A DNA stretch of 64,000 nucleotides from an uncultured Acidiferrobacterales bacterium. GTDB lineage: Bacteria; Pseudomonadota; Gammaproteobacteria; Acidiferrobacterales; UBA6901. The notes beneath the pieces were generated by a model. The model was not told the DNA's origin. It saw only the letters and a list, made by a program, of their open reading frames with translations, and searched no databases. This document shows, one piece after another, positions 1,816 through 28,150 of the stretch; the first letter of the stretch is position 1, and each line of letters opens with the position of its first letter. Where the stretch lies: positions 23,135 to 87,134 of the forward strand of contig CAYJBG010000001.1 of the NCBI GenBank assembly GCA_964368085.1, given 5' to 3'. The position numbers were made by a program, and so were the translations under genes.

Positions 1816-1888
1816 GCTAGCTTTGCTGTTGGTACTCTTGCCGTGGCGATCAAATCGCTCTATCTATTGGTCATTAAGGAAGGAAGGT

Positions 1889-2779: not shown

Positions 2780-2793
2780 TCGTCGAACGCTTA

Positions 2794-4185: not shown

Positions 4186-4219
4186 CCGGCGACAGCCCTT
4201 CAGATGGAGCATAAATAAA

Positions 4220-5494: not shown

Positions 5495-5529
5495 GTATAT
5501 TCGTTCAAGCCACACATCAATTCACTACT

Positions 5530-6294: not shown

Positions 6295-6467
6295 TTGCAG
6301 ATTAGACAAAGATGGAAGCTCAAAGTGCAAAACCTTTCGTTGACACCAGCCCGTCGGTAACCTGTGTCCAGAAACGTTCCACTAAGTTGCGGTGGATGCG
6401 ACGTCTCCCCAATTGTCAGTAGCGCCAGGCACAAGAGTCCGATCCAGTAGCACGAAGGAGGTCGGAC

Positions 6468-8138: not shown

Positions 8139-8158
8139 TCAAACTACGGAGTATTTCA

Positions 8159-8899: not shown

Positions 8900-8915
8900 T
8901 GGGAGAGTCAACAAA

Positions 8916-9182
8916 ATGAGTAGCGATGTGAAAGTCACGATCGAGAATGTCATCCGGGCGGTGGCGGAGGAGCGCAGCCTCAGCCTGCCCGAACTCAAGG
9001 ACAACACGGAGATCGTGGACGAGCTCGGCTTCTCCTCGCTAATGGTGGCCGCGTTGATCGCGAATCTGGAAGAGGAGTTCGGCTTCGATCCGTTCCAGCA
9101 GGAGGATGTCATGATTACTGACATCAGAACCATCAAGGATCTTTGCAACGTTTACGCGAGCTGTCTGGAACGTAGCCGCTAA
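8916..9182 (+). CDS. Discrete acyl carrier protein (putative starter ACP)
   Basis: 88-aa acidic four-helix-type protein with the phosphopantetheine-site motif DELGFSSLMVAALI. It lies between the SDR and the N-terminal KS of the first PKS. The track start at 8874 overlaps the SDR and was rejected. Confidence 0.75.
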   Translation: MSSDVKVTIENVIRAVAEERSLSLPELKDNTEIVDELGFSSLMVAALIANLEEEFGFDPFQQEDVMITDIRTIKDLCNVYASCLERSR

Positions 9183-12200: not shown

Positions 12201-15200
12201 CTTGTTTTCGTTGACGTCGGTGTCGGCACTGACGAACTCATGAATCTGCTGCACGCCGAGTGCAGTCATCCCCACGACACGTTGATCAAGTATGAACAGG
12301 GCGTCAGACACATCTCGAGCTGGCAATTCCTGAAGGAGGACGATGCCGACACGTTTGATGGGAATAACCCCTACAAAGACCAAGGCGTCTATCTGATCAC
12401 CGGCGGGCTCGGCGGTCTGGGCGTTGTATTCGCAAAAGAAATCCTAGCCCGAACCTCGAACGCGAAAATCGTCCTGAGCGGGCGGGCGCCGCCGTCCGAA
12501 GTCAGAAAGTCCGCAAGCAAGAAGGCGGTTCTCGAATCGCTGCAAGCCGGTGGAGCGACGGTGGAGTATCGGCAGCTCGATCTGGACGATCCGAATAAGG
12601 TCAAAAACCTGATCGCGGCGATCCAGAAGAAGTACAAGCAGCTGAACGGCATCATCCACAGCGCGGGAATGACGTCGGACGGCTTTATCTTAAAAAAGAC
12701 CGCCGCCGACGTCGGTCGCGTTCTTGCCCCGAAAGTCCTAGGCACCTTCCATCTGGATCAGGCGACGCAGGACGTCGACCTCGACTTCCTGGTCTTGTTT
12801 TCGTCGCTGACTTCTGCCGTGGGTAACCTGGGGCAGGCGGATTACGCCGCAGCCAATGGGTTCATGGACGAGTTCGCGGCTTATCGCAACCGCTTGGCGA
12901 ATGCCGGAAAACGCCGGGGTTTCACGCTCTCCATCCGCTGGCCGCTGTGGCAGGACGGCGGTATGCAGCCAGATGCCGCCGGCAGGGAGATGCTGCAGGA
13001 GACAACCGGCATCTGTCCTATGCAGACGTCGGTTGGGATTCGAATGTTCTATCGGAGTTTGGCATCCCGGTACGACCAGACCCTGGTAATGGAAGGCGAT
13101 CTGCATCTGATGCAGCGGACCTTGGGCGTTGGGGCAGCGATCCATGCGGCTACGCCGGCAGTCGACGTCCCGAAGCTCGAATTCTCGTCCGAAACCGAAG
13201 GCGAAGATAGGGGTGGGCGTAGCCTCACGGAGCTGACCGAGGCCTACCTATGCAAGCAATTGTCGGCGTCACTGAAGTTGCCGGCACACAAAGTCGATCC
13301 GCGGGCTCCCCTTGAAGACTATGGGATTGACTCGATACTGGCTTTGGGTTTGACGAGCTCGCTGGAGAAGACCTTCGGGTCTCTTCCGAAGACTCTGTTC
13401 TTCGAGTATTTGACGGTCCGCGAGCTGGCCGGTTACTTCGTCAAAGCGCATGTCGCGCGGTTGTCGAAACTCTTTTCGGTTTCGGAGAGCGGCAGCGGCC
13501 AAGAATCGATGCAAGTATCGGCGCAAGCGCTGGCCCCGGCCCAGCAGGAATCCATTTCCAGCGTTCGCTTCGGCAGCCGGCGCTTCATTGACGAGGGCGG
13601 TCAACCGGTATCCCGTGAGGTAGCACCTTCCACGAACGATCCGATTGCGATCATCGGATTGAGCGGCCGTTATCCCGAAGCGCGTAATCTGAAAGATTTC
13701 TGGCGCAATCTGCGCGAAGGCAAAGATTGCATCGTCGAAGTGCCGAAAGGCCGTTGGGATTGGCGGGATTATTACAGTGAAGATCGCTCCGAAAAGGGCC
13801 GCCACTACAGCAAATGGGGCGGCTTCATCGAGGGCGTCGACGAGTTCGACGCGAGGTTCTTCAATATTTCCCCGGTCGAGGCCGAAACGATCGATCCGCA
13901 GGAACGCTTGTTCCTGCAGCATGCTTGGATGGCGATCGAGGATGCGGGCTATACCCGCGCCGCTTTGCAGATTCCGAAGGAGAGTGACCTTGCCGGGCAG
14001 GTGGGCGTGTATGCGGGTGTGATGTACGGCGAATATCAGCTCTTCGGCGCCGAAGTCAGCTTGCAGGGCAATCGCGTGGGCTTCGCCAGCAATCTCGCCA
14101 GCATCGCCAATCGCGTTTCCTATGTTATGAATCTGCACGGTCCCAGCATGGTTGTGGACACCATGTGCTCGTCGTCGCTGACGGCGATCCACTTGGCGTG
14201 TCAGGACCTCAAGCTCGGCCGCACGTCGCTAGGTATCGCAGGCGGCGTCAATGTCACAATCCATCCCAACAAGTACCTGATGCTCAGCGCCGGACAGTTC
14301 ATTTCCAGCGACGGTCACTGTCAGAGCTTCGGCGAGGGTGGCGAAGGCTATATCCCGGGCGAGGGCGTTGGCGTCGTCGTGCTGAAACGGCGATCCGAAG
14401 CGGAGCGCGACGGCAACCACATCTACGGCATCATCCGGGGCAGCGCGCTTAGCCACGGCGGCAAGACCAACGGCTACACGGTGCCAAATCCGCAGGCGCA
14501 GGCCCGCGCTATCCGTCTGGCGCTGGCGGAAGCCGGCATTGATCCCCGCCATATCAGCTATGTCGAAGCGCATGGCACGGGCACCAAACTGGGCGATCCG
14601 ATCGAGATCGCCGCGCTGAGCAAGGTTTTTCAAGAAAGCACGCAGGACACCGGATTCTGCCTGATCGGATCGGCGAAATCGAATATCGGCCACTGCGAGG
14701 CCGCGGCGGGCATTGCGGGACTCACCAAGGTGCTGTTGCAGTTGAAGCACAAGCACATCGTGCCTTCGCTGCATTCGGCCCGACTGAATCCACACATTGA
14801 TTTCGACAGCACCCCGTTCATCGTCAATCAGGCGCTCAGGCCATGGGAGCAGCCGGTCGTTGACGGAAAGAGGTTGCCGCGTATCGCTGGCATCTCGTCC
14901 TTCGGGGCGGGCGGTGCGAACGCGCACCTGATCGTCGAGGAATATCCGCAGCCCGTGGTGGCCGTGTGTCCGCAGGCCGATGTCGAGTACATCTTCCCGC
15001 TCTCGGCGAGAACTGCGGAGCAGCTGCGTGAGAAAGCGCGCGATCTGCTCGACTTTATCCGCGGCGAAGAGCCGCCGCTGCCTCTGGCGTCGATCGCCTA
15101 CACGCTCGAGGTCGGCCGCGAGGCGATGGACGAACGCTTGGCCGTCCTCGCGGATTCCGTCGCGACGCTCGCCGACCGACTTCAGGCCTATCTCGATGGC

Positions 15201-18200
15201 CACACCACCACCGACGACGTGTATCAAGGGCAGGTCAAGGCCAACAAAGACACGCTGTCGCTGCTCACAAAGGATCCCGATCTGCACGCGACGATCGGGA
15301 AGTGGATCGCTGACAGGAAGCTGTCGAAGTTGGCGGATCTCTGGGTCAAGGGCCTGGAGCTGGATTGGCGCAAGTTCCATGTTGCGACGCCCGCGCTGAT
15401 CAGCCTGCCAACGTATCCGTTCGCGAAGCAGCGGTTCTGGATCGACGCGGCGGTCGCCGCGCGCCGCGCGCCGCAGGCGCTGTCCGCGGCGCTTCACCCA
15501 CTGCTGCACAGTAACACCTCGGATTTCAGCCAGCAGAGCTACGCTGCGACGTTCGGCGCAGACGAGTTCTTCCTGACGGGTGCGCCCGGCCGGCGTTGTC
15601 TGACGGAAGCGGCATACCTGGAGATGGCGCGCGCTGCCATCGATGCGTCGATGCCCGCGCGGAAACAGTCGAGCATTCTCGAGCTGCGCGATGTCGCATG
15701 GGCGCAGCCGGGCGTCATAGTCGACAACAGGCCGGTCATGATCGCTCTGTTCGACAAGCTCGGTGAACAAGTGACGTTCGAGATATACAGCGCCGGCGGC
15801 GTGGATGGCGCCGGGGACATCGTGCACTGCCAAGGGCGTGCGGCCCGCAGCGATCAGCCGGCGGGCGCGAGGCTCGACATCGCCGCGATCGCGGTGCAGG
15901 AAGGGCGGGCGCTGATCGAATTGCGCCTGCCGACTGGGATGGAGAATGGCCAGGACGACTACGTCCTGCATCCCGCGCTGATGCAGAGCGCGCTGCAGGC
16001 GGCGGGCCTGACCAGCAGTTTGTCGCAACCCTTCGCCATGGCGTCGCTGCGCGTTGTCTTCCCCAGCACCAAGGCGAAGTTCGCATGGGTACGTCACTCG
16101 GCGTCTGCGGAGCGTGCGATCGACATCGATCTGTGCGACGAGCACGGCCATGTCTGTGTGCAGATGCGCGGCCTGCACTATGGGGTTTCCGCGACCCACG
16201 CTGCGGAAGCGCCTGCCGAACGTGCGTCGATCGAGGAGCCGAAATCGGTCGCGATCACCGATTCCGGTTCCGCTAAGCGCACCGCCCAGCCGACCCGCGT
16301 TCGCTTTGACACCTCGTCGTCGATCATCTCCGACGCGCCGATCCTGGAAAAGCTGAACCACAGTATCGCATTGAAGGCGCCCGGCGCATCGCTGGCGATC
16401 GTCGCCGAGCACGCCAAGGCGAGCCGGATCCGGTTCGCCGCCCCGCAGGCGGCGTTCTCCGACTGCTCGATTCTCGGAAAGCCGAACGGCAGCATCTTGC
16501 TGATGGCGCCCGACGCATCGCCCGAGGTCGAGGCCGAGCGCGGCGCCTCGGCCAAGCCGCGGGTCTTGCTTTCGCCGCCGATTGCCGGGATGGAGACGCC
16601 GGAACAATCGCGCGCCGCTTCCTCCGTCGGCCTGTTCGACTATGGCAACGGCGTGTTCGCGATCCGTATCGGCGCGGCCGTGAGCCGCAATACGCTGTCG
16701 GCCGACCTGATCGAGAATGTGCTGCGCGCGATGCGAACGGTCGAAGACGCCTCGTCGGCGAAGGTACTGACGATCGAAGGCAGCGACGAGCATTTCCTGG
16801 CCGGCGGACTCGAGCAGCATCGCGATGCCGTCGCCTCGAAGCTTTATAGCGCGATCGCGGAATTCCCGTATCCGGTGATCGCCGTGGTCCGCAACGATGC
16901 CGTCGGCGCCGGTTTTCTGGCCGCCGCGGTCAGCGATTTCATGGTGTGCAGTGACTCGGCACGCTATGCGTTTGCGCTTCCGGAAGAGGGGCTGTACCCA
17001 TCGGCCGCCGAGGACATCCTGATCGAGCGTTTCGGCCGTGCACACGCGACCGACTTCCTGTATATGACGACCGGCGCCACCGGCGCCGAACTCAAGGCGA
17101 AGGGCTGGACCTGCCCGATCATGCCGCGCGATCAGGTCGCGGCGTATGCCCAGGACCTGGCCGCGAATTTGGCGAAGAAATCCCAGATCTCGCTGCGGCT
17201 GCTAAAGCAGCACCTGGCGCGCCACATCGCCAGCGCGGTGAAGGCGTTGCCGACCGTCGATGGCGCACCGTTCGCGGCGGACGCGGCCAAGCCCGGCACG
17301 ATCAAAGCGCCTTCCGTGCGCCTCCAGTTGGATGCGCACGGCGAACGCGCGCTGGTCGTAAGGATCCGCGCGCAGGCGGACGGATCTAATGCGAAGGACC
17401 TGCTGGCCGACCTGGAAGCGGTATTCGCCAAGATCGACGACGCTTCGCCGTATCGCTGCGTGGTGCTCGCGAGCGAGCTCGTGCAGTTCCTGCCGGACGT
17501 TGCCGAGGACGCCCGCGCCGATGTCGCGCAGGGCTTCAGGAAGGCGTTGCTCGCGCTGGATCGCCCGATCGTTGCCGCCTTGAACGGTGACGCGACCGGC
17601 ATCGCCTGGTACGTCGTCCAGTTCTGCGACGCCTGCGTTTACAGCGAGCAGGGCCGCTATTCCGGCGCCGATATTCTGCGCGATCCCGCGTTGGCGGGCG
17701 ATGCGGCCGCGGTGTTTTCCCTGCGATTCGACGATGAGGCCGCGAAACAGATCCTGCTGGTGGGCGCCGAGGCTTCGGGCGTCGAATTGCGGGCCGACTA
17801 CGGTGCGCTCCATGTCCTGGGCGCCGATCAGGTGTTTGCGGGCGCGCTGGAACTGGCTGATGCTCTGGCCGCATTCCCGACGCCGGTGTTGTCCGCTTGG
17901 AAACAGCGCACCGCGTCGTTCCTCACCGCTGATACCGCGAGCCTCGGCGACGAGAGCATGCGGGCGGAGGAGGGAGCCGGTGACACCGCCGATGCGGCGG
18001 TCGGCGCGCCCGTTGCGGTCGCGCTCGAATCGACAGTGATCTCGGCGATCGCGCATCCGGAAGGCGTTCTGGAAGTGCATATGGCCGACCGTGACGCGAA
18101 GAACATGTTTTCCGACGCGTTCTCGCGCGGCATGCGCGAGGTGTTCGCGCATGTGGAGGAGAACCGTGCGTACAAGGTCGTGGTCATCACCGGATACGAC

Positions 18201-21200
18201 AACTATTTCTCATCCGGCGGGACACAGGACACGCTACTGGCGATCCACGAAGGCAAGGCCAGGTTCACCGACAACAAGGTCTTCCAATTGCCACTGACTT
18301 GCACGGTGCCGGTGATCGCTGCCATGCAGGGTCATGGCGTCGGCGCCGGTTGGGCCATGGGCATGTACGCGGACTTCGCGCTGTTCAGCGATGAAAGCCG
18401 CTACCTCAGCCCGTATATGGGCTATGGCTTCACGCCGGGCGCAGGCTCGACGCTGATGTTCCCGGAAAAGACCGGTTACGACCTCGCGCGCGAGACGCTG
18501 CTGACCGCGCAGGAGTACTCCGGTGGCGAGCTCAAGGATCGGGGTTTGCGCAATCCGGTGTTGCCGCGAGAGCGCGTGCTGCCTGCCGCGATGGCGCTGG
18601 CGCGACGGATCGCGCAGGGCTCCCGCGGCCGGCTCGTTGTCCTTAAGCGGCGTTGGGCACATGTCCTGCAAGCGTCCTTGCAGGACACGTTCGATCGCGA
18701 ACTGGCGATGCACGAGCGCACCTTCGTCGGGCAGGCCGACACACTGGCGCGGATCCAGGGCGGCTTCGGCGCCGAAGCCGCCGCACAAACTGTCGCGCCG
18801 CAGCAACCGGCCTCGCTGCCGGCCCGCGAGGAAGACCTCTGTGCCATCACCGCCAGCCTCAAGCAGATGCTGGCGCACGAACTGCGCATGCAGGAACACG
18901 AGATCGGCGAGGGCGAACAGTTCGTCGATCTCGGTCTGGATTCGATTACCGGCGTTACCTGGATCCGCAGGATCAACCAGAAGTACGGGACCTCGATCGA
19001 GGCGATCAAGGTCTACAGCTATCCGACGCTGACGCAGCTCAGCCGTTATGTCCGTGAGGAAGCTGAAAAGGCAGGGGCAGTGTTCATCGCGCCGCAGGTC
19101 CACACGCCTGTCGTTCCGATCGAAGTGCCTGCCGCGCGCCCGGTCGTGACCTCGCTGGCGTCCTGGCGCGATCGAAGCAGATCGAAGGCGGTCGCCGGGA
19201 CAGCCTCGGCCGCCGGACCCATCGCCGTGATCGGCATGGCCGGTCAGTTCGCGAAGGCCAGAGACCTCGAAGAGTTCTGGCAAAACATTGCCCAGGGCAA
19301 GGACTGCATCGAAGAGATCCCGAAACACCGTTGGGATATTGACCTCTACTATCAGGAGGGCGAAGTCGTGCCCGGCAAGACCTACAGCAAGTGGATGGGC
19401 TTTCTGGAAGAATATGACCTGTTCGACGCTGCGTTCTTCAATATCTCGCCGCGAGAGGCGAGAAGCATGGACCCGCAGCAACGCTTGTTCCTGCAGGCAT
19501 GCTGGCACAGCATCGAGCACGCGGGATACAACCCCAAGTCGCTTTCCGGCAGTAAATGCGGCGTGTTCGTCGGATGTTCCGCCGGCGACTACCACCAGCT
19601 TTCGAAGCGCGAACAGCTCAGCGGTCAAGGGTTCACCGGCGCGGCGCCGTCCATCCTGGCGGCGCGCATCTCTTATTTCCTGGACCTGCACGGTCCCAGC
19701 CTGTCCATCGACTCGGCGTGCTCTTCCTCGCTGGTCGTGATCGCCAGCGCCTGCGATAGCCTGGTCTCCGGCGCCAGCGACATTGCGCTGGCAGGCGGCG
19801 TCAACGTCATGTGCGGCCCAGCCATGCAGATCATGACCGCGCAAGTAGGCATGTTGTCACCGCAGGGCAGATGCTTCACCTTTGACGAAAGGGCGAACGG
19901 CATTGCCAACGGCGAGGGCGTCGGCGTCGTGATGCTGAAGAGACTGGCCGATGCGGAAAGGGATCGCGACTGGATTTACGGCGTCGTCGAAGGCTGGGGC
20001 GTCAACCAGGACGGCAAGACCAATGGCATCACCGCGCCGAACGCGGATTCGCAGACGCGCTTGCAGCAGGAGGTCTACGACAAGTTCCGGATCGATCCCG
20101 CCGGTATCCAGCTGATCGAGGCTCACGGCACGGGTACCGCGCTGGGCGATCCGATCGAAGTGGCGGGACTCAAGGCGTCCTTTGGAAAATACACCAGGAA
20201 CAAGGACTACTGCGCGCTCGGATCGGTCAAGAGCAATATCGGCCACTGCCTGACCGCCGCGGGCGTGTCAGGATTCCTCAAGATCCTGCTCGCGCTGAAG
20301 CACGAGCAGCTGCCGCCCACGATCCACTTCAGCAAGCTGAACAAGCATATTTCGCTGCAGGATTCGCCGTTCTATGTCAACGACCGGCTGCGCGAGTGGA
20401 AGCACAACGGGACCGAACCGCGTCGGGCCGCGATCAATGCGTTCGGCTTTAGCGGAACCAATGCGCACGCCGTGATCGCCGAGTACCGCTCGCAGCAGGA
20501 CATCGCAGCGCCTCGCGGGCCGGCGATTGTGCCGCTGTCGGCCAGGACGCCCGAGCAGCTCAAGCACAAGGGGCGTGATCTGCTCGCTTTCATTCGCGCA
20601 CAAAGCGCGTCGACGCTCTACCTCGACAGGATCGCCTACACCCTACAGGTCGGCCGCGAGGCGATGAACGAGCGCGCCGCTTTCATTGCGGGCACGGTTG
20701 CCGAGCTGGAGAGCAAGCTCGAGGCCTTCGTCGAAAGTGAAGATACCGATGGCGGCCCGCAGGCGGCGCACGTATATCGCGGCCAGGTGAGCAGCAACAA
20801 GGACACCTTGCTGGCACTCAGCTCGGATACGGATTTCCAGACGATGATCGCAAAATGGATCAGCAGGAAGGAATTGCCGAGACTGGCCGATCTGTGGGCG
20901 AAGGGCCTGGCCCTGGACTGGAACGCATTCCATGCGGCCGGCGACGCGCCGCGACGCATCGGTTTGCCCGTGTATCCGTTCGCCAAGGAGCGTTACTGGA
21001 TCGACGCGGCATCCGATGAACGCATCGTGCTGACCGGTCACGCGAACGCCGCCATCCATCCCTTGCTGCACGCCAACACGTCCGACCTGAGCCGGCAGAA
21101 GTACAGCACTACGCTCAATGGCGATGAGTTCTTCCTGATCGATTGCGATATTCCGGGAGGCGGTACGAAGCGGGTGTTGCCCGCGTCCGCCTGTTTGGAA

Positions 21201-24200
21201 ATGGCCCGGGCCGCCGTTGAGAACGCGGTCCCGGGTTTGCAGCAGTCCGAAGGCATAGAGCTGTGCGATGTCGAGTGGGGGCAGCCGGTCGAAGTCGGAC
21301 AAATCTCCATCGCGCTGTCGAGCCAACGCGACGGAAGTGTGGCGTTCGAGATCTTCAGCGGGGAACAGGAGGAAGTCGTTCATTGCCAAGGCGCTGTCGC
21401 GCTGCGCGGTGAGGTTGCGCCGAGTACGTTGGATCTTGCACTTCTACAAGGCCGGATCCGGAAAGGGGGCCAGACCCCGGAGAATCTGTACGATGCCTTC
21501 GCGAAGTCCGGTGTCAGGTACGGCGTCGTGCAGCGGGCTATTCACGAAATCCATACAGGCGACGACGAACTGCTCGTCCGCTTGGTGTCGCCTGCGGCGA
21601 TGGATGGCTCCCTCGGCGATTACCGGATTCATCCCAGCCTGATGGACAGCGCGATACAAGCCGGTATCGTCCTCCTCGGTGATCCCGCAGCGCGATCCGC
21701 CAAGCCGCTCTCTCCAGCGACGATCAATTCGGTGAACGTCGTATCGGCGTGTGCCGAAGAGGTGTTCGCCTGGGTCCGTCGTAGCGCAGCCGATCGTCGG
21801 AAGGCGGACATCGACCTTTGCGATCGGCACGGAAATGTATGCGTGCAGGTCAGGGGGCTGGCACTGCAGGCGCTGACGGTCGTAACGCCTCGCCCCGCGG
21901 ATACGGAAGTCGCGCCAGCGCGCGCGCAGCCGGCGCCACCCGTCTTCCAGCAGACGCAAGCCGCCGTTCGCCCGGCGACCACCGACGCCCGGCCGTCAAT
22001 CTCGCAAGAGCAGCTGCAGCAGCAGCTCAAGGCCAGTCTGGCCGAGGCGCTGTTCATGAAGCCCTTCGACGTGGACGTGAACAAATCCTTCACAGAACTC
22101 GGTCTGGATTCGATCATCGGCGTCGAGTGGGTCAAGACCATCAACAAGCAGTACGGCACCGGCATCTCAGCCACCCGGGTCTATGACTATCCCAGCGTGA
22201 AGGAGCTTGCCGCGTATCTGCAAGTCGAAATCGGCGGTGCAGTGTCTGGTTCCCTGGCCACCGTCGCCGTCAGCGCGGTCGCGCCGATCGATGCGCCGGA
22301 AGCGCGTCCCGCCGCGGAACCGGCGATCTCCCGCGAGGCCCTGCAGCTGCAGCTGAAGGCGAGTCTGGCCGATGCGCTGTTCATGAAACCTTCCGATGTC
22401 GACGTGAATAAGTCCTTCACCGAGCTGGGGCTCGATTCGATCATCGGCGTCGAGTGGGTCAAGACCCTCAACAAGCAGTACTGCACCAACATCTCCGCGA
22501 CCCGAGTCTACGACTATCCCAGCATCAAGGAGCTGGCGTCGTTCCTGATCGGAGAGATGGCCGCAATCAAGCTGCCGCAAAGCCCTGCATCGGCCCCGCT
22601 CGCAACCGTCATCGCGCAAAGCGATAAGCCGAGTCCGCGCGCGGAGACGGCGGTGCAGGGCGTTTCTCCGCCCCCGCGGGCGAAAGCGGCATTCGCCGGA
22701 AGAACCACCAGGTTCTCGAGACTCGAACGCATCCGCTTCGAGCCCAAGTACGCCAGGAACTTCAAAGATCTGTATTTCTATAGCCCTTATTGCCACGGCG
22801 ATTTCGAGGCAGAAGGCGAGTTTTCGGTTCAATGCGCTATCAACCCGGAAACCAACGTCAGTTTGAAGGAACACGTCGTCTTCGATGAGCATCTGTTGCC
22901 GACGGATGCGTACATCGAGCTGGTCTATTCCGCGTACAGAACCTATTTCTCCGCCGAAAACGTCTGCCTGAAGAATATCGCCATCGTCAATCCTATCTTG
23001 GGCGAGAAAGGCAGGGACAACCACATCAGGGTCGTGTTCCGTCGGGCCGGCGACGATCTCCAGTTCTTCGTCAAGTCCAGCCTTTCGCCCGATTTCCTGA
23101 ACGACAAGCTGCACATGCAGGGATTCGTCTCCATCGCGGATAAATCCCCTGCGACCAGGTTCGACGACGGATTCGCGATCGAAAATGAACTCGGCAGCGC
23201 GGAGATACCGACGAATACGGGGACGTACTATGCGCCTCTGCAGGCACTGCGATTCGGCGAGTCTTCGGCGGTCGGTCTTATCAGCGTACCGGGCCACGAT
23301 TTCAAATTCCTGGCGAGCCCGTTTGTGTTGTACGGAGGGCTGTGCACCGTCATCAACTACGGTGCCTATCTGGCAGGAAGGCATCATGGGATCAGCGACG
23401 ATCAATTCCTCCCGCATAGGATCGGCAATATCGCGGTCCTGGGTTCCCTGAACGAATCCGATTACCGCTGCTACGCCGAAGTCAGGAAGCTGGAAAGGGA
23501 TTCAGTGGAGTTCTATTTCGAAATCGTCGACCGGGCGGGCAAGCCAATGCTAGTTGTCGACTCGATCAGTTTGCGCCGGGTCGCGAGAAAGACCATCCAG
23601 CAGCAAGCGGCGGCCGCGAAGACGCTCCCGGTGATCGATAAGAAGGATCCTTCGATCGAGGCGGGCGCGGCGGCCGAAAAGATTGCCATCATCGGCATGT
23701 CCTGCCGTTATCCGATGAGCGAGAACGTCGACACGTTCTGGGAGAACCTCAAAGCGGGCAAGGATTGCGTGATCGAAGTACCCGCCGACCGCTGGGGTGC
23801 CTATTCCGACTGGTATCACCCTGATCCGCGCCACCCGCACACCTCGTATTCCAAGTGGAGCGGATTCCTGGACAGCATCGACACCTTCGACGCCCTGTTC
23901 TTCGGCATCTCGCCTGCGGAGGCGGAACTCATTGATCCGCAGCAGCGCATTTTTTTGGAGGAATGCTGGAAGACCATCGAGAGCGCTGGTTACGCGCCGA
24001 GCACGCTGTCTAACAGCCCTTGTGGTGTATATGTGGGCTGCTCTATGAGCGATTACGGCAGGGTGCTGGCCACCGATGGCCAGGACACCGCCGGTGCCGC
24101 CTTCATGGGTACGTCCAGCGCGATCCTGGCCGCGCGGATTTCCTATTACCTGAACCTCAAGGGCCCGGCCTTGGCGCTGGATACTGCGTGCTCGTCGTCC

Positions 24201-26462
24201 CTGGTCGCGGTGCATCTGGCGTGTGAGAGCATACGCAGCGGTGAGAACCAGCTGGCGCTGGCAGGCGGCATCAACCTGCTGGCCACGCCATTCGGCCACA
24301 TCCTCACCTCGCAGGTTGGCATGCTGTCGCGCGATGGTCGCTGTGCGGCGTTCGACGCCACGGCGAATGGCATCGTGTTCTCCGAAGGCTGCGGCGTGCT
24401 GTTGCTCAAGGCCCTGTCCGCCGCCAAGCGCGACAACGACAATATCCTCGGTGTGATCCAGGGATCTGGCAGCAACCAGGATGGCAAGACCAACGGCATC
24501 ACCGCGCCCAGCTCGAAAGCGCAGGAACAGCTGTTGCAGCAGGTGTATACCAAGTTCGGCATCGATACTAAGCGGATCAGCTATGTCGAAGCGCACGGCA
24601 CGGCAACGCCGCTGGGCGATCCTATCGAGTTCAACGCGCTGACCTCGGTGTTTGGCAAAGCCACGACCGACAGGAAACACTGCACGTTGGGCTCGGTGAA
24701 GAGCAATATCGGCCATACCGGCTTTGCCGCTGGCGTCGCCGGGGTTGTCAAGGTTCTGCTGTGTATCAAACACAGGAAGCTCGTACCTTCTATCCATTAC
24801 AGCCAGCCCAATCCCCATATCGAGTTCGAGAAGTCGCCGTTCTACGTCAACACCGAGTACCGCGACTGGGAGAGCGAGCAGCCGCGTCTGGCGGCTGTCA
24901 GCGCGTTTGGCTTTAGTGGCACCAACGCCCATGTCGTGATCGAGGAGCATGTGCCGTCGTCCGAGCCCGTGCAGACCGGCGCCGCGCCCGACGGCAAGGT
25001 GCTCGTGCCCTTGTCGGCGAAGGCCGCAGAGCAACTGCAGCAGAAGGTCCGCGATCTTCTGGACTTCATCGGCAACCAGGAGCAGCCGGTGGACCTCGCC
25101 AGGTTGGCGTACACCCTGCAGGTCGGCCGAGACGCCATGGATCATCGCCTCGGTTTGATCGTCGGCTCGGTCGACCAGTTGGCCGAAAAGCTCCAGGCGT
25201 GGCTCGACGCCAAGGTGCATATCGAAGACGTCTATCGCGGCCAGCCGTCGCATGGCGACGACACGCTAGCCGCGTTCGCTGGCGATGCGGAGATGCGCAA
25301 CGTCATCGAGCGCTGGATCGCGCGCAAGGACCTGCCGAAGGTCGTGGATCTATGGGTCAGAGGCTTCGATCTGGACTGGAACAAGCTGCACGAGGGCACC
25401 AAACTGCGGCGTATGATCCTGCCGACCTATCCATTCGCCAGGGAGCGTTGCTGGGTAGATGGGGCCACGTCGCGCAAGCCCATCGCGACGGGCAACGCGG
25501 CCGCGTTGCTGCATCCGCTGCTGCATCGCAATACGTCCGATCTGAGCCAACAGAGCTACACCAGTACGTTCGGCGGCGACGAGTTCTTCCTCGCCGATCA
25601 CCGGGTCAACGGGCAGCCGGTGCTGCCGGCCGTCGCCTACCTGGAGATGGCGCGCGCCGCGCTGATGGATGCGATGCCCGCGGAGAAGGCATCGCTCCAT
25701 CTCGAGCTGCGCCACGTCGTCTGGGCGCAGCCGATCGTCGTTACCGACAAGAAGAGCGTCACGATCGCCGTCTTCTCTGAGAACGAAGAACAAGTCGATT
25801 TCGAGGTTTATAGTCCAGGTGTCGACGGTACCGACGAAGTTCTGCATTGCCAGGGTAGCTGCGTATTCGGCGGCCAGCCCGCAGCACCCAAGCTCGATCT
25901 TGGCAGACTCCGCACGCAAATGTCGCGGGGCAGCCTGGAGGGAGCTGTTCTCTACCCGACATTCGCGACGATGGGTCTCAATTATGGACCGGCCTTCCGG
26001 GGACTCGTCGCGATCCACCAGGGCGAGAACCAGTTGCTGGTCGAACTCAGCCTGCCCGACGCTGCGCGCAAGCGCGGCGGGAATTACGTCTTGCACCCGA
26101 GTCTGATGGACAGCGCGCTTCAAGGTTCCATCACCTTGATCGACGACGTCGTCAGGGCCTCGGGCAAGTTGTCGCTTCCTTTTGCCCTGGAATCCCTGCG
26201 CATCGTCTCGCTCTGCTCGGATCGGATGGTCGCATGGGTCCGGTATTCGCAAGGCGCGCCAGGCGCATCGTCCAATCTCATCAAAGTCGACATTGATCTC
26301 TGCGATCCGGACGGCAACGTCTGCGTGCAGATGCAAGGTTTTTCGTCGAGGCCCATGGAAAACGTCGCTTCCTTCGATGAAGCATATTACCAATCCATCA
26401 TCGCCGGCATACTCAGCAACGAGATCTCCGTCGATGAAGCCGTGGAATTAGGGAACCTATGA
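9219..26462 (+). CDS. Trans-AT polyketide synthase 1 (5747 aa): KS-DH-KR-ACP / KS-DH*-ECHx3-ACP / KS-DH*-ACP-ACP-X / KS-DH
   Basis: Uninterrupted 17.2-kb ORF. It has four KS domains with C-H-H motifs, each followed by a flanking subdomain ending LPTY(P/V)FxxxR(Y/F)W. No GHSxG AT domain is present. The C-terminal helical tail FDEAYYQSIIAGILSNEISVDEAVELGNL looks like a docking element. The stop overlaps the next start (ATGA at 26459-26462). Confidence 0.97.
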   Translation: MNIKDNDIAVIGMSGKFPGANSVSEFWENICAKRESIRLLSDEELRNAEVPEKDIADSSYVKASALLDDVAMFDPGFFKISPLEAELMDPQIRLLLQCAWETLEDAGHAKKEAQNIGVFAGAGGVATSYFSNFVNVNGHFEKITASPTHLGNDKDFLATYISYKLNLTGPSMTVQTACSTSLVALHQARLSLLSGECDMALAGGVTVRVPHGHGYHYKEGYIFSKSGRVKTFDEGADGVVFGSGLGLVLIKKLSDAIQDGDNVYAVIKGSAIANDGKGKMSYAASSAKGQIACVRAALKNAGVEAGSIGLVEAHGTGTSMGDPEEVKALSTAFKEQTSKKTYCALGAVKTNVGHLEAAAGIVGFIKAVLAVKHGLIPPTVHYAKSNPRIKFENTPFYVNGKLQKWSEGKRPRRAAVNSLGVGGTNAFVILEEYVSAETSLKKALPTPVVVPLSAKSESSLRAYAKRLADFLVACSEKKDAINIEDVAYTLQVGRETMDCRVAFVLSSVDELKAALDRYLQGAEVCSAQGEASGLATSWVNNGDVDWTNLYADTKPRRISLPTYVFARERYWIETGGVVPSRAVIHPLLHTNISDLNEQKYSSSFTGNEFFLKDHQVHTKQRAGSGSQLQKILPGAAYLEMARVAIEQAAPIHYDARVPEFRDIVWLQPIAVSGGKQVNIALVARDRDGQQRIDFEVYTRNDHIHFQGRCVFASESARDRLDPARLKDSMARDQWSADSVYAAFAKMGLDYGPAHRAIIAIDRGERELLAQLKLPLTVEASQPDYVLHPSLIDGALQAATALLFDLNNVPSHPIVPFAIESLRVIAPCAKEMLAWVRYSQGAQPSDKSAKLDVDLLDKEGNVGVQIRGFVPRSLGQETLGSLLATQVWQPSNPAATQATYTERHVVLCDLPHVDASKIARDCSLLQIEKGKNIAERYSDLALACFEKVQALVKRKPQSETFVQVVIPNTDENAAYAGLSGLFKTVRLENPQIAGQLVFVDVGVGTDELMNLLHAECSHPHDTLIKYEQGVRHISSWQFLKEDDADTFDGNNPYKDQGVYLITGGLGGLGVVFAKEILARTSNAKIVLSGRAPPSEVRKSASKKAVLESLQAGGATVEYRQLDLDDPNKVKNLIAAIQKKYKQLNGIIHSAGMTSDGFILKKTAADVGRVLAPKVLGTFHLDQATQDVDLDFLVLFSSLTSAVGNLGQADYAAANGFMDEFAAYRNRLANAGKRRGFTLSIRWPLWQDGGMQPDAAGREMLQETTGICPMQTSVGIRMFYRSLASRYDQTLVMEGDLHLMQRTLGVGAAIHAATPAVDVPKLEFSSETEGEDRGGRSLTELTEAYLCKQLSASLKLPAHKVDPRAPLEDYGIDSILALGLTSSLEKTFGSLPKTLFFEYLTVRELAGYFVKAHVARLSKLFSVSESGSGQESMQVSAQALAPAQQESISSVRFGSRRFIDEGGQPVSREVAPSTNDPIAIIGLSGRYPEARNLKDFWRNLREGKDCIVEVPKGRWDWRDYYSEDRSEKGRHYSKWGGFIEGVDEFDARFFNISPVEAETIDPQERLFLQHAWMAIEDAGYTRAALQIPKESDLAGQVGVYAGVMYGEYQLFGAEVSLQGNRVGFASNLASIANRVSYVMNLHGPSMVVDTMCSSSLTAIHLACQDLKLGRTSLGIAGGVNVTIHPNKYLMLSAGQFISSDGHCQSFGEGGEGYIPGEGVGVVVLKRRSEAERDGNHIYGIIRGSALSHGGKTNGYTVPNPQAQARAIRLALAEAGIDPRHISYVEAHGTGTKLGDPIEIAALSKVFQESTQDTGFCLIGSAKSNIGHCEAAAGIAGLTKVLLQLKHKHIVPSLHSARLNPHIDFDSTPFIVNQALRPWEQPVVDGKRLPRIAGISSFGAGGANAHLIVEEYPQPVVAVCPQADVEYIFPLSARTAEQLREKARDLLDFIRGEEPPLPLASIAYTLEVGREAMDERLAVLADSVATLADRLQAYLDGHTTTDDVYQGQVKANKDTLSLLTKDPDLHATIGKWIADRKLSKLADLWVKGLELDWRKFHVATPALISLPTYPFAKQRFWIDAAVAARRAPQALSAALHPLLHSNTSDFSQQSYAATFGADEFFLTGAPGRRCLTEAAYLEMARAAIDASMPARKQSSILELRDVAWAQPGVIVDNRPVMIALFDKLGEQVTFEIYSAGGVDGAGDIVHCQGRAARSDQPAGARLDIAAIAVQEGRALIELRLPTGMENGQDDYVLHPALMQSALQAAGLTSSLSQPFAMASLRVVFPSTKAKFAWVRHSASAERAIDIDLCDEHGHVCVQMRGLHYGVSATHAAEAPAERASIEEPKSVAITDSGSAKRTAQPTRVRFDTSSSIISDAPILEKLNHSIALKAPGASLAIVAEHAKASRIRFAAPQAAFSDCSILGKPNGSILLMAPDASPEVEAERGASAKPRVLLSPPIAGMETPEQSRAASSVGLFDYGNGVFAIRIGAAVSRNTLSADLIENVLRAMRTVEDASSAKVLTIEGSDEHFLAGGLEQHRDAVASKLYSAIAEFPYPVIAVVRNDAVGAGFLAAAVSDFMVCSDSARYAFALPEEGLYPSAAEDILIERFGRAHATDFLYMTTGATGAELKAKGWTCPIMPRDQVAAYAQDLAANLAKKSQISLRLLKQHLARHIASAVKALPTVDGAPFAADAAKPGTIKAPSVRLQLDAHGERALVVRIRAQADGSNAKDLLADLEAVFAKIDDASPYRCVVLASELVQFLPDVAEDARADVAQGFRKALLALDRPIVAALNGDATGIAWYVVQFCDACVYSEQGRYSGADILRDPALAGDAAAVFSLRFDDEAAKQILLVGAEASGVELRADYGALHVLGADQVFAGALELADALAAFPTPVLSAWKQRTASFLTADTASLGDESMRAEEGAGDTADAAVGAPVAVALESTVISAIAHPEGVLEVHMADRDAKNMFSDAFSRGMREVFAHVEENRAYKVVVITGYDNYFSSGGTQDTLLAIHEGKARFTDNKVFQLPLTCTVPVIAAMQGHGVGAGWAMGMYADFALFSDESRYLSPYMGYGFTPGAGSTLMFPEKTGYDLARETLLTAQEYSGGELKDRGLRNPVLPRERVLPAAMALARRIAQGSRGRLVVLKRRWAHVLQASLQDTFDRELAMHERTFVGQADTLARIQGGFGAEAAAQTVAPQQPASLPAREEDLCAITASLKQMLAHELRMQEHEIGEGEQFVDLGLDSITGVTWIRRINQKYGTSIEAIKVYSYPTLTQLSRYVREEAEKAGAVFIAPQVHTPVVPIEVPAARPVVTSLASWRDRSRSKAVAGTASAAGPIAVIGMAGQFAKARDLEEFWQNIAQGKDCIEEIPKHRWDIDLYYQEGEVVPGKTYSKWMGFLEEYDLFDAAFFNISPREARSMDPQQRLFLQACWHSIEHAGYNPKSLSGSKCGVFVGCSAGDYHQLSKREQLSGQGFTGAAPSILAARISYFLDLHGPSLSIDSACSSSLVVIASACDSLVSGASDIALAGGVNVMCGPAMQIMTAQVGMLSPQGRCFTFDERANGIANGEGVGVVMLKRLADAERDRDWIYGVVEGWGVNQDGKTNGITAPNADSQTRLQQEVYDKFRIDPAGIQLIEAHGTGTALGDPIEVAGLKASFGKYTRNKDYCALGSVKSNIGHCLTAAGVSGFLKILLALKHEQLPPTIHFSKLNKHISLQDSPFYVNDRLREWKHNGTEPRRAAINAFGFSGTNAHAVIAEYRSQQDIAAPRGPAIVPLSARTPEQLKHKGRDLLAFIRAQSASTLYLDRIAYTLQVGREAMNERAAFIAGTVAELESKLEAFVESEDTDGGPQAAHVYRGQVSSNKDTLLALSSDTDFQTMIAKWISRKELPRLADLWAKGLALDWNAFHAAGDAPRRIGLPVYPFAKERYWIDAASDERIVLTGHANAAIHPLLHANTSDLSRQKYSTTLNGDEFFLIDCDIPGGGTKRVLPASACLEMARAAVENAVPGLQQSEGIELCDVEWGQPVEVGQISIALSSQRDGSVAFEIFSGEQEEVVHCQGAVALRGEVAPSTLDLALLQGRIRKGGQTPENLYDAFAKSGVRYGVVQRAIHEIHTGDDELLVRLVSPAAMDGSLGDYRIHPSLMDSAIQAGIVLLGDPAARSAKPLSPATINSVNVVSACAEEVFAWVRRSAADRRKADIDLCDRHGNVCVQVRGLALQALTVVTPRPADTEVAPARAQPAPPVFQQTQAAVRPATTDARPSISQEQLQQQLKASLAEALFMKPFDVDVNKSFTELGLDSIIGVEWVKTINKQYGTGISATRVYDYPSVKELAAYLQVEIGGAVSGSLATVAVSAVAPIDAPEARPAAEPAISREALQLQLKASLADALFMKPSDVDVNKSFTELGLDSIIGVEWVKTLNKQYCTNISATRVYDYPSIKELASFLIGEMAAIKLPQSPASAPLATVIAQSDKPSPRAETAVQGVSPPPRAKAAFAGRTTRFSRLERIRFEPKYARNFKDLYFYSPYCHGDFEAEGEFSVQCAINPETNVSLKEHVVFDEHLLPTDAYIELVYSAYRTYFSAENVCLKNIAIVNPILGEKGRDNHIRVVFRRAGDDLQFFVKSSLSPDFLNDKLHMQGFVSIADKSPATRFDDGFAIENELGSAEIPTNTGTYYAPLQALRFGESSAVGLISVPGHDFKFLASPFVLYGGLCTVINYGAYLAGRHHGISDDQFLPHRIGNIAVLGSLNESDYRCYAEVRKLERDSVEFYFEIVDRAGKPMLVVDSISLRRVARKTIQQQAAAAKTLPVIDKKDPSIEAGAAAEKIAIIGMSCRYPMSENVDTFWENLKAGKDCVIEVPADRWGAYSDWYHPDPRHPHTSYSKWSGFLDSIDTFDALFFGISPAEAELIDPQQRIFLEECWKTIESAGYAPSTLSNSPCGVYVGCSMSDYGRVLATDGQDTAGAAFMGTSSAILAARISYYLNLKGPALALDTACSSSLVAVHLACESIRSGENQLALAGGINLLATPFGHILTSQVGMLSRDGRCAAFDATANGIVFSEGCGVLLLKALSAAKRDNDNILGVIQGSGSNQDGKTNGITAPSSKAQEQLLQQVYTKFGIDTKRISYVEAHGTATPLGDPIEFNALTSVFGKATTDRKHCTLGSVKSNIGHTGFAAGVAGVVKVLLCIKHRKLVPSIHYSQPNPHIEFEKSPFYVNTEYRDWESEQPRLAAVSAFGFSGTNAHVVIEEHVPSSEPVQTGAAPDGKVLVPLSAKAAEQLQQKVRDLLDFIGNQEQPVDLARLAYTLQVGRDAMDHRLGLIVGSVDQLAEKLQAWLDAKVHIEDVYRGQPSHGDDTLAAFAGDAEMRNVIERWIARKDLPKVVDLWVRGFDLDWNKLHEGTKLRRMILPTYPFARERCWVDGATSRKPIATGNAAALLHPLLHRNTSDLSQQSYTSTFGGDEFFLADHRVNGQPVLPAVAYLEMARAALMDAMPAEKASLHLELRHVVWAQPIVVTDKKSVTIAVFSENEEQVDFEVYSPGVDGTDEVLHCQGSCVFGGQPAAPKLDLGRLRTQMSRGSLEGAVLYPTFATMGLNYGPAFRGLVAIHQGENQLLVELSLPDAARKRGGNYVLHPSLMDSALQGSITLIDDVVRASGKLSLPFALESLRIVSLCSDRMVAWVRYSQGAPGASSNLIKVDIDLCDPDGNVCVQMQGFSSRPMENVASFDEAYYQSIIAGILSNEISVDEAVELGNL
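9228..13470 (+). other. PKS module 1: KS1-DH1-KR1-ACP1
   Basis: KS1 ~9228-10520 (TACSTS, Cys codon 9750; EAHGTGT; NVGHLE). DH1 ~10960-11840 (HPLL at 10971; LKDHQV...LPGAAYLEM; HPSLIDGALQ). KR1 ~11850-13130 (GVYLITGGLGGLG at ~12384; HSAGMTSD). ACP1 ~13225-13470 (GIDSIL, Ser codon 13332). Confidence 0.85.
16296..16556 (+). repeat. Degenerate 43/44-codon tandem repeat in the DH*2-ECH linker
   Basis: RVRFDTSSSIISDAPILEKLNHSIALKAPGASLAIVAEHAKAS is followed by RIRFAAPQAAFSDCSILGKPNGSILLMAPDASPEVEAERGASAK. Shared positions are R.RF......SD..IL.K.N.SI.L.AP.AS. A third partial start, PRVLL, follows. Confidence 0.7.
16620..18770 (+). other. In-line triple crotonase-fold array 1 (ECHa 16620-17250, ECHb 17315-17925, ECHc 18015-18770)
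   Basis: ECHa: GVFAIRIG...VLTIEGSDEHFLAGG...PVIAVVRNDAVGAGF. ECHb has the same fold pattern (ALVVRI...RCVVLAS...PIVAALNGDATGIAW) but lacks both glycine oxyanion motifs. ECHc: VVVITGYDNYFSSGGT...AAMQGHGVGAGW...ELAMHERTF. By eye ECHc shares roughly half its positions with the discrete ECH2 at 59234-59983. Confidence 0.8.
21999..22550 (+). repeat. Tandem ACP-coding direct repeat (period 327 nt)
   Basis: ISQEQLQQQLKASLAEALFMKPFDVDVNKSFTELGLDSIIGVEWVKTINKQYG... recurs as ISREALQLQLKASLADALFMKPSDVDVNKSFTELGLDSIIGVEWVKTLNKQYC.... The nucleotide copies are mostly identical, including the run ggattcgatcatcggcgtcgagtgggtcaagacc. Confidence 0.9.
22710..23590 (+). other. Orphan DH-like double-hotdog domain (X) between tandem ACPs and KS4
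   Basis: SLKEHVVFDEHLLPTDAYIELVYSAY mimics the DH HxxxGxxxxP/AYLEM region (His codon 22872, Gly replaced by Asp). The second half, FKFLASPFVLYGGLCTV, aligns with HPxLLDxxLQ but lacks both His and Asp. About 290 aa, flanked by Ala/Pro-rich linkers. Confidence 0.6.
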
Positions 26463-28150
26463 AGCAAAAGTTGACGAAAATCTATAGCGAGCTGTCGGCC
26501 GGAAAGCTTTCGCAGCAGGAGGCTTTGGAGAGAATCAAAGCGCTGAAACTGCCGGAACCGAACAAGCCGATCGGGACTCTATTGGCTACTCCGGTGTGGG
26601 AGCCCTCCGCGCCGCCGGCATCGCCGAAGGACGCGGCGACTACGTGGACACAACATCACATCATCGTCTGCGATTTGCCGCAAATCGCGATGGCAGAGCT
26701 CGAGTCGCTGATCCCTAAGAGCCGCTGCGCAACCGTGCAGACGGCGCAGTCGGGCAAAGTTTCGGAAGCGTATGCCGGCGTTGCGCTCGCATGCTTCGAA
26801 ACGATACGGCGCATCCTCAAGGGAAAGTCTCAAGGCCATTCGTTTGTGCAGCTGGTGGTCGCTGAGCGCGATGATACGCAGATGTTCGCCGGTCTATCCG
26901 GCCTGGTCGAAACCGCGACGTTGGAAAATCCCGGTGTCATGGGGCAGATCGTCTTCGTTCGATCCGATATCCAGTGCGTCGATCTCGCACGATGCTTACA
27001 GATAGAACGCAACAACCCGCGGGATCGCGTCGTCCGATACACCGGGGATGAGCGGCAGTCGCGGCGCTGGCGGCTCATCCATGAGGTCTCGATCCTCACC
27101 GAGGAGCGATGCGCGTTCAAGGAGCACGGCATCTACCTGATTACCGGTGGTCTCGGCGGCCTGGGCATCCTGCTGGCGAAGGAGATTCTACACAGGACGT
27201 CGGGCGCGAAGATCGTCCTGTCCGGGCGCGCCGCCGCTGCCGACGCGAAGCTCGCTGCCTTAGAATCCCTGCAAAAGACCGGTCGTGTCGAATACCGCCA
27301 GGTCGATGTCACCGGCACCGGGGAGGTCGAACGCCTGCTGTCCTCGATCGCGAAGGAATATGGGCAGCTCAACGGCATCGTCCACAGCGCCGGCATCGTG
27401 CGCGACGCCTTCATCCTGAAGAAGAGTTCCGCGCAGTTCCGCGATGTGCTGCAGCCGAAGGTCGCGGGCACTGAGCACCTGGACCTCGCCAGCCAGGCGA
27501 TGGAACTGGACTTTTTCGTGCTGTTTTCGTCGATCGCCTCGTGGGCCGGTAACGTCGGTCAGGCCGATTACGCGGCTGCGAACGGTTTCATGGAGCAGTT
27601 CGCGGGCTATCGCAACGCCTTGGTGGCCGCTGGTCAACGCATGGGTAAGACGCTCGCCATCGCCTGGCCGCATTGGCTGGAAGGTGGGATGAACATCGAC
27701 GCCACGGGCATGGCCCTGCTGGAAAAGCGCACGGGGCTGCGCTCGCTGAAGACCACCGAGGGCATGCAGGCGCTGCATCACTGTTTGGCGCTGCCGCAGA
27801 GCCATGTCATGGTGATGCGCGGCGATACGGCCGACATGCGCCGTGCGCTCGAGGCCCAGCGCACGGCCCGGCCGGAAACGTCGCCCGTCGCGAAACACGG
27901 CGCCGGAGCCGATGCGACGGGTACCGGCGATCTGTTCGGGAAGACGCGCGCATTCCTGCGCAAGGAATTCTCCGCCGTCCTGAAGATTCCCGTCCACAAG
28001 ATCGAGACCCGCGCTCCGCTGGAGAACTACGGTATCGATTCGATCCTGGCGATGAATCTGACGGGCCAGCTGGAGGCTACGTTTGGCGCGCTGGCGAAGA
28101 CCCTGTTCTTCGAGTACCAGACCATCGACGAGCTCGCGGATTATTTCGTG
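23675..28150 (+). other. PKS module 4 (split across PKS1/PKS2): KS4-DH4 | KR4-ACP4
   Basis: KS4 ~23675-24950 (TACSSS, Cys 24189; EAHGTAT variant; NIGHTG). DH4 ~25505-26355 (LADHRVNGQPVLPAVAYLEM; HPSLMDSALQ). Protein break at 26459-26462. KR4 ~26570-27870 (GIYLITGGLGGLG at ~27127). ACP4 ~27930-28150 (GIDSILAMNL). Confidence 0.85.

Follow-up and report, generated by a model that had tools for sequence, protein, structure and literature searches.

We analysed a biosynthetic gene cluster in a 64-kb stretch of DNA (64,000 nucleotides, hereafter the window) from an uncultured Acidiferrobacterales bacterium (GCA_964368085.1, contig CAYJBG010000001.1, positions 23,135 to 87,134). The open reading frame (ORF) list and Pfam matches identify a trans-acyltransferase (trans-AT) polyketide synthase (PKS) cluster with 10 ketosynthase (KS) domains. 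All window features given below lie on the forward (+) strand. The subject of this analysis, module 3, is encoded by PKS gene A (9219-26462), a single ORF of 5747 residues whose domains were mapped by phmmer with queries taken from the window, and by Pfam. Gene A starts with module 1, made of KS1, a dehydratase (DH), a ketoreductase (KR) and the acyl carrier protein (ACP) 1. It continues with module 2 (KS2, a DH relic, three in-line ECH domains and ACP2), then with module 3 (KS3, a DH-like domain, ACP3a, ACP3b and a further DH-fold domain that we call DHpost), and ends with KS4-DH, which opens the split module 4. Module 3 sits directly downstream of module 2 and its three in-line ECH domains.

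The region 19215-22550, corresponding to residues 3333-4444 of the gene A product, covers KS3 to ACP3b inclusive. It comprises KS3, with an intact Cys-His-His triad (19218-20498), the DH-like domain, where Cys3976 takes the place of the catalytic His (21057-21875), ACP3a (22020-22220, active Ser at 22110, Trp at 22128) and ACP3b (22350-22547, Ser at 22437, Trp at 22455). No KR match was found by phmmer or Pfam between KS3 and KS4 (23679-24953), the KS that receives the product of module 3. The composition of the module given by a sequence-only reading of this DNA (a KS, no KR, a DH-like domain with Cys at codon 21144, and a GLDSIIGVEW doublet, right after module 2) was confirmed by the domain map and by alignment. 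The proposed extent of the module held at its start only: its end has to be moved beyond 22550, as the conserved DHpost (22701-23663) is also part of module 3. With an intact KS3, no KR and a DH devoid of its catalytic His, the module is of the type that retains a beta-keto group. It bears every sequence hallmark of a module accepting a cassette built around an HMG-CoA-synthase homologue (HMGS), and has no in-line ECH.

The Trp located six residues after the phosphopantetheinyl Ser of an ACP (Ser+6) has a strong predictive value for beta-branching sites (PMC10006238). Both ACP3a and ACP3b carry it within the motif GLDSIIGVEW, and so do ACP2 (18858-19049, Ser at 18942, Trp at 18960), ACP5a (33398-33586) and ACP5b (33740-33928), within the motif GLDSITGVTW. 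As the sequence-only reading had stated, it is absent from the six other PKS-embedded ACPs; the starter and donor ACPs also lack it. The alignment of all 13 ACPs which that reading had called for was performed, and returned the ACP motifs exactly as quoted. The five ACPs with the Trp form a sequence group of their own, sharing 35-79% identity among themselves and 12-27% with the rest. By simple counting, this partition of five versus eight, which matches module type, is one of the 1287 possible 5-of-13 splits. Two subtypes can be distinguished among the five: ACP3a and ACP3b share 79% identity, ACP2, ACP5a and ACP5b have 58-68% mutual identity, and only 35-44% identity is found between the two sets.

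The cassette that would act on these ACPs lies downstream of the PKS genes, and is complete. It consists of HMGS (57202-58461; Pfam, TIGR01835), a discrete ECH1 dehydratase (58449-59234), a discrete ECH2 decarboxylase (59231-59983), the donor ACP (60021-60260), a decarboxylating KS in which the active-site Cys is replaced by Ser (60247-61515), and a trans-AT (61589-62842). The two discrete ECH proteins, which had been placed at 58449-59983 beforehand, are indeed found there, inside the full cassette. They were typed by an NCBIfam scan, using NF005498 as the ECH1 model and NF005496 (cut-off 215 bits) as the ECH2 model. The former scored 394 bits on ECH1, which is the only ECH1-type protein of the window, and the latter 386 bits on ECH2, in which alignment revealed the catalytic motif AMHELTFH (residue assignment according to PMC7501309). 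This discrete ECH2 is the only ECH2 encoded in the cluster outside the modules.

In-line ECH domains are present in two modules. Module 2 (13638-19049) consists of KS2, a truncated DH relic without His (15495-16175), an ECH triad (16647-17237, 17358-17957 and 18057-18758, with the catalytic His of the third domain at nucleotide 18711) and ACP2. Module 5 (28334-33928), encoded by gene B, consists of KS5, a DH relic (30164-30913), an ECH triad (31286-31834, 31931-32500 and 32618-33313, with the catalytic His of the third domain at nucleotide 33272), ACP5a and ACP5b. In both DH relics, located between KS and triad, the His-bearing segment is deleted or replaced, and the relic is kept in orthologues. 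The sequence-only reading supposed that modules 2 and 5 rely on their own triads. However, NF005496 was the best match of all six in-line domains, and only the third domains (278 and 286 bits) exceeded the cut-off, the first domains scoring 124 and 100 bits and the middle ones 49 and 74. The ECH1 model was not among the best 25 matches of four in-line domains, nor in the full match lists of the two middle domains, and the six domains aligned with the discrete ECH1 at 13-21% identity.

ECH2 decarboxylases have a universally conserved and essential His, His230 in PksI (PMC7501309). Alignment showed that, apart from the discrete ECH2, the third domain of each triad is alone in retaining the equivalent of this residue and both oxyanion-hole Gly motifs. 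The third domains share 42-44% identity with PksI, at a root-mean-square deviation (rmsd) of 1.5 Å, and their superposition on the PksI and CurF ECH2 structures gives TM scores of 0.92-0.95. In the first and second domains the C-terminus is shortened, and the catalytic features of an ECH2 are missing. Judged by these scores and residues, each triad is predicted to supply one ECH2 active site and no ECH1. Triads that would be self-sufficient for both ECH1 and ECH2 were rejected on these grounds, so that modules 2 and 5 do not appear to be served by their own triads alone. Since the in-line domains are of the ECH2 type and no other ECH1-type protein is present, the discrete ECH1 is most likely common to modules 2, 3 and 5. 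Without an in-line ECH2, module 3 would depend on the discrete ECH2 as its decarboxylase. The proposal that the discrete pair serves module 3 was therefore supported for ECH2, the sole non-modular one, and not for an ECH1 dedicated to this module.

The distribution of these elements was followed in related clusters. The exact cluster was found only in metagenome assemblies, one of them from Hainich groundwater, so its producer is uncultured. A genome scan returned relatives that are about 53-57% identical, and Caballeronia udeis LMG 27134, Telluria sp. and Massilia atriviolacea SOD share the full layout in collinear order. The Caballeronia locus (L008) retains the cassette order HMGS, ECH1, ECH2, ACP, KS, AT. 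The tandem of ACPs with the Trp is conserved in every relative. Eight clusters have both a module combining such ACPs with DHpost and a visible cassette: the window, Caballeronia L008, L009 and L012 to L016. In two other contexts, P0055 and P0059, the cassette is outside the sequence seen, and they were left out of this count. A discrete ECH2 is found in all eight clusters, and this co-occurrence supports the idea that the free ECH2 serves the module devoid of in-line ECH. ECH1 is found in six of the eight. The two loci with no detectable ECH1 are L009 (29130-31245) and L012 (17783-22694); the latter has the donor ACP, the KS, HMGS and ECH2, and its close relatives L013-L016 retain ECH1. In L012-L016 the DHpost module is the only acceptor module with the Trp in the PKS sequence recovered (27-37 kb), and stands beside an HMGS cassette from which nothing, or only ECH1, is missing. 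In these clusters, branching thus most likely takes place on this module. Orthologues of the discrete ECH2, at 70-90% identity, were found in Massilia, Telluria, Caballeronia, Chitiniphilus, Lysobacter enzymogenes, Sporocytophaga, Aliikangiella, metagenome-assembled genomes (MAGs) of Bacteroidales and many metagenomes. The cassette is widespread, and perhaps this holds for the cluster family too. No known product of this family was found in the literature on Massilia or on trans-AT systems.

DHpost occupies the 320 residues between ACP3b and KS4. Pfam gives it only a weak match to PKS_DH_N (1.4e-9), but its AlphaFold2 (AF2) model (pLDDT 69.8, pTM 0.69) has the double hotdog fold of PKS dehydratases, and Foldseek aligned it with the CurJ DH at a TM score of 0.83, as well as with DH domains of MlnB, difficidin and PksL. 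The catalytic His is kept (His4552, nucleotide 22872), and the catalytic Asp is replaced by Tyr4705 (nucleotide 23331), so that the His and the Asp of the DxxxQ/H helix that define a canonical PKS dehydratase are not both present. The DHpost family is rare, with 14 clusters at E<1e-30 among 1.84 billion representatives, and a plasmid collection yielded a single distant match, 21% identical, from Nostoc. In the close subgroup, all members with upstream context have DHpost right after one to four ACPs with the Trp and before a KS; in one variant, DHpost opens the next PKS protein and the previous one ends with these ACPs. The signature of the domain is HxVFGxxxxPTDAY, with an invariant His. At the Asp position, the members associated with Trp-bearing ACPs have Y, F, S, N or G, and the distant members that follow ACPs without the Trp retain the Asp.

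DHpost is probably catalytic. A pattern with the His only is that described for DH folds of the enoyl-isomerase type such as PksEI14, and the most likely activity of DHpost would be an enoyl-isomerase-type shift of a double bond on the branched intermediate. It could move the double bond left by the trans-acting ECH2, or it could substitute for ECH1 as an HMG-ACP dehydratase where a cassette has lost ECH1. Module 3 may accordingly represent a new type, KS-(dead DH)-ACP(Trp)n-DHpost, in which a DH-fold domain with the His only finishes the branch in cis.

The other DH-like domain of module 3 precedes the ACP doublet. In the alignment, the residue encoded by codon 21144-21146, Cys3976, falls on the His of HxxxGxxxxP (FFLIDCDIPG, versus FFLADHRVNG in other DH domains), and the YGP motif reads YGV. 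The closest relatives of the domain in the PDB are ordinary trans-AT DHs (about 1e-47). The orthologue of Caballeronia udeis has a Glu at the position of Cys3976 and has lost the YGP segment. Telluria sp. and Massilia atriviolacea have lost the domain altogether, so that the ACPs directly follow the KS linker; it is likewise deleted from P0003 and L009, which keep the rest of the module. Five more distant clusters with the same module type have various residues at the Cys position, never a His. Cys3976 has no special meaning, as the residue is conserved in no relative and the domain is lost in orthologues. A functional role for it was rejected, and the replacement of His by Cys, which had been singled out in the sequence-only reading, is best dropped as a meaningful feature. 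The domain is a relic, taken to be a decaying non-catalytic spacer.

Within the window, the identity between KS domains tracks the chemistry of the preceding module. KS2, KS5 and KS8, which follow DH-KR modules, are 76-80% identical, and KS3 and KS6, which follow the triad modules, are 70% identical. KS4, located after module 3, shares 53-55% identity with KS3 and KS6, versus 39-48% with the other KS domains. It groups with the post-branching KS domains, and its divergence from them would fit a branched but different intermediate leaving module 3. Different branch types at adjacent positions had been envisaged as possible, and the position of KS4 apart from the KS3/KS6 pair is what this idea leads one to expect; the principle itself is already known from kalimantacin. 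Among single-KS entries of the PDB, a PksL KS was the top match of KS3 (5erf) and of KS4, whereas it ranked 12th for the control KS2. A two-KS bimodule entry (Brevibacillus) scored higher overall for both KS3 and KS4.

From these observations we consider it probable that module 3 is a second HMGS-type beta-branching module, which has HMGS and ECH1 in common with modules 2 and 5, is served in trans by the discrete ECH2, and uses DHpost in cis. KS3 would extend the branched product of module 2 and, as module 3 has no KR, the beta-keto group would stay on the ACP doublet. The donor ACP and the Cys-to-Ser KS would supply an acetyl group in trans, to be added by HMGS to the beta-keto group; the adduct would then be dehydrated by the discrete ECH1 and decarboxylated by the discrete ECH2. 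DHpost would act in cis on the branched intermediate before it is handed over to KS4. On modules 2 and 5, the same HMGS and ECH1 would act, and decarboxylation would be performed in cis by the third domain of the triad. By analogy with kalimantacin, modules 2 and 5 would yield one olefin regiochemistry, probably an exo-methylene, and module 3 another, probably an endo beta-methyl.

Several points weigh against this scheme. The Trp is predictive of branching, yet it is neither necessary nor mechanistically decisive (PMC10006238), and in vitro both ECH1 and ECH2 can be unselective for their ACP (PMC12560621); sequence by itself does not tell which ECH acts on which module. The assignment of exo and endo products to cis and trans ECH2 is drawn by analogy. 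In L009 and L012, HMGS is directly followed by ECH2, and tblastn detected no ECH1 in the 27-37 kb seen, which hints at a dehydratase rather than an isomerase role for DHpost. A PDB profile search detected no similarity between DHpost and the solved enoyl-isomerase. Conservation across phyla extends to the first ECH domain of the triads, and this domain might hold an unseen activity, for instance that of a dehydratase acting in cis, which would make the triads more self-sufficient than proposed here.

Among the other explanations, the one we regard as least improbable, though still unlikely, keeps HMGS branching on module 3 and changes its completion. Either DHpost would dehydrate the adduct in cis before ECH2 decarboxylates it, or a carboxymethyl branch would be kept, and possibly methyl-esterified by the PEMT-type (PEMT/ICMT-family) methyltransferase encoded next to the cassette (55877-56356). 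The dehydratase fold of DHpost, its invariant His and its place right after the acceptor ACPs speak for the first version, as do L009 and L012, where HMGS and ECH2 occur with no detectable ECH1, even though ECH1 is counted in the minimal cassette (PMC12560621). Yet six of the eight DHpost clusters keep ECH1, the ECH1 of the other two could lie beyond the sequence seen, and the loss of the catalytic Asp, with a variable replacement, would be unusual for a dehydratase. As for the second version, a gene of a carboxyl-methyltransferase family does adjoin the cassette, but this PEMT gene is absent from the Caballeronia orthologue, and the universal presence of the discrete ECH2 speaks against retention of the carboxylate. 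It is improbable that module 3 is unbranched, a plain KS-ACP-ACP leaving a beta-keto group, or else an enol or pyrone precursor, with an inherited Trp and a discrete ECH2 kept as a redundant spare for modules 2 and 5. The Trp is indeed no absolute determinant (PMC10006238). The conservation of the Trp-bearing tandem in all relatives, the L012-L016 clusters in which a DHpost-type module is the sole acceptor found beside the HMGS cassette, and the grouping of KS4 with KS3 and KS6, which follow branching modules, and not with the remaining KS domains, all argue against it.

We give an equally small chance to dead triads, acting as scaffolds only, with the discrete ECH1 and ECH2 processing all three branching modules and producing branches of one type. 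Two of the three domains in each triad do lack the catalytic His and the oxyanion motifs, and some of the in-line ECH domains in pederin-family PKSs are regarded as inactive (PMC6855096). But the third domain keeps every catalytic feature, passes the ECH2 cut-off in both triads, resembles PksI in sequence and structure, and is conserved across phyla; in addition, the difference between KS4 and the pair formed by KS3 and KS6 goes against a single branch type. Finally, module 3 resembles a rhizoxin-type vinylogous branching module (KS-B-ACP) by its order, a KS, a double hotdog without His and an ACP, in which case the His-less DH-like domain would be the B domain. This we find very hard to believe: RhiE, which contains the rhizoxin B domain, is absent from the PDB matches of the DH-like domain, all of the closest being ordinary DHs; KS3 scores 329 bits with the RhiE KS versus 450 with the PksL KS; Telluria, Massilia, P0003 and L009 have lost the domain from an otherwise preserved module; and the ACPs of module 3 bear the HMGS flag. 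A rhizoxin-type B domain was therefore rejected for the Cys-bearing DH, on account of its PDB relatives and its loss in orthologues.

The favoured scheme, a module 3 branched with the help of the discrete ECH2, has its closest precedent in the kalimantacin/batumin (bat) system. There, modules 9, 10 and 11 are consecutive branching modules, branching also takes place at module 5, and one HMGS cassette likewise serves several modules, adjacent ones included (PMC5089993). Moreover, one branching module has an in-line ECH2 while its neighbours are served by the discrete one: the in-cis modular ECH2 (mECH), with which the trans-acting BatE competes, is held to give an exo-methylene, and BatE an endo-methyl (PMC12560621). 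A mixed use of cis and trans ECH2 has also been proposed for phormidolide, leptolyngbyalide and oocydin (PMC12560621). In view of the kalimantacin precedents, the idea of cis and trans ECH2 put forward here is a new instance of an established principle. The present cluster differs from kalimantacin in that its in-line unit is a triad of ECH folds with one active member, present twice, and in that the module served in trans has an extra DH-fold domain with the His only after its ACPs; there is no orthology at the sequence level.

Similarities with two other systems can be noted. The pederin family (PedI, OnnB, PsyA, labrenzin PKS4) also has several in-line ECH-fold domains before tandem ACPs and a discrete ECH in the cassette, and some members have an inactive DH without HxxxGxxxxP. 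The first ECH copy is often degenerate there, one functional domain being thought sufficient (PMC6855096). In contrast to the present cluster, these PKSs have one or two in-line ECH domains rather than three, and a single, exomethylene-forming branching module instead of two adjacent ones; a DH-fold domain after the ACPs is not described in them. In the bacillaene system (PksH, PksI, PksL), the canonical example of trans-served branching, a discrete ECH1 and a discrete ECH2 act on a KS-ACP-ACP module with tandem acceptor ACPs, as proposed here for module 3. The AMHELTFH motif of our discrete ECH2 corresponds to the His230/Phe234/His235 motif of PksI (PMC7501309), and the resemblance extends to a PksL KS, the single-KS structure most similar to KS3 and KS4. 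Unlike the present cluster, the bacillaene system makes only one branch and contains no in-line ECH.

For DHpost, the nearest counterparts would be the shift-type DH* domains, such as PksEI14 of bacillaene and the CorJ DH* of corallopyronin, double hotdogs that have kept the His and lost the Asp, as DHpost has. DHpost is nevertheless distinct from enoyl-isomerase DH* domains, by its location after the ACPs of a branching module rather than in a KS-DH*-ACP shift module, and by its own signature. In the literature searched, with searches of limited reach, we found no description of a DH-fold companion with the His only placed after the ACPs of branching modules served in trans, and none of a three-domain ECH unit.

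Over its full length, the ECH triad is conserved as one unit, at about 47% identity, in MAGs labelled Thermoanaerobaculia and Bacteroidales. The AF2 model of the 746-residue triad has a mean pLDDT of 82.7 and a pTM of 0.84, a level typical of a single packed body, unlike beads on a string. Its best structural matches in Foldseek are the PksI and CurF ECH2, with TM scores of 0.92-0.95 normalised to the target. Crotonase-fold enzymes, PksI included, are trimers (PMC7501309). Given this trimeric state and the single live site of the triad, it is attractive to view the latter as a covalently fused crotonase pseudo-trimer, hypothetically made of two scaffold subunits and one active ECH2 site, as the model suggests. 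If so, a trimeric enzyme would be embedded in a dimeric megasynthase. The joint proposition that the triad is such a pseudo-trimer and that DHpost defines a new branch-finishing module type is put forward tentatively, as it appears to us somewhat less probable than its negation.

How a single HMGS cassette is steered towards different branches, even adjacent ones, is an active question in polyketide engineering. One protein here combines both solutions, a built-in ECH2 on the one hand, and a trans ECH2 with a DH-fold domain after the ACPs on the other. The cluster occurs widely among soil and groundwater bacteria and, thanks to orthologues in culturable Massilia and Caballeronia strains, it offers a convenient system to study cis versus trans control. 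Should the triad be a pseudo-trimer and DHpost a branch-finishing domain, two new portable parts for making defined beta-branches would become available.

The rest of the window is organized as follows. The gene order begins with an MMPL transporter, a LolA-like protein and a GMC oxidoreductase, followed by an acyl-AMP ligase (6603-8138), an SDR (8159-8899) and the starter ACP (8874-9182). After gene A come PKS genes B (26459-41941) and C (42002-55876), the PEMT-type methyltransferase, and a metallo-beta-lactamase-fold protein (56221-57075) that precedes the HMGS cassette. To the 3' side of the window (L004, 15646-20251) are found a second acyltransferase, an 879-residue protein with faint methyltransferase matches, and a phosphopantetheinyl transferase. 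The G+C content is 58-66% in the PKS genes (10000-55000) and 49-55% in the flanks and accessory genes (1-9000 and 56000-64000), the flanks by themselves lying at 49-52%; this step would be consistent with a horizontally acquired or mosaic cluster.

Two observations concern other parts of the assembly line. In module 6 (KS-DH-KR-MT-ACP), the DH has a Met at the position of the catalytic His (FFFDMQIDG; window position 36047, residue 3197 of the gene B product); its activity is probably lost, so that an alpha-methyl-beta-hydroxy unit is predicted. At its C-terminus PKS C ends with KS10-DH (53117 onward), with no terminal ACP and no thioesterase, and the metallo-beta-lactamase-fold protein may release the chain. 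Finally, the MMPL transporter and the LolA-like/DUF1329 lipoprotein-sorting gene that flank the cluster (10-2779) have counterparts flanking distant clusters with the same module type (L015, 22309-25548; L009, 33748-36159), which hints that the product is lipid-like and is exported to the outer membrane.

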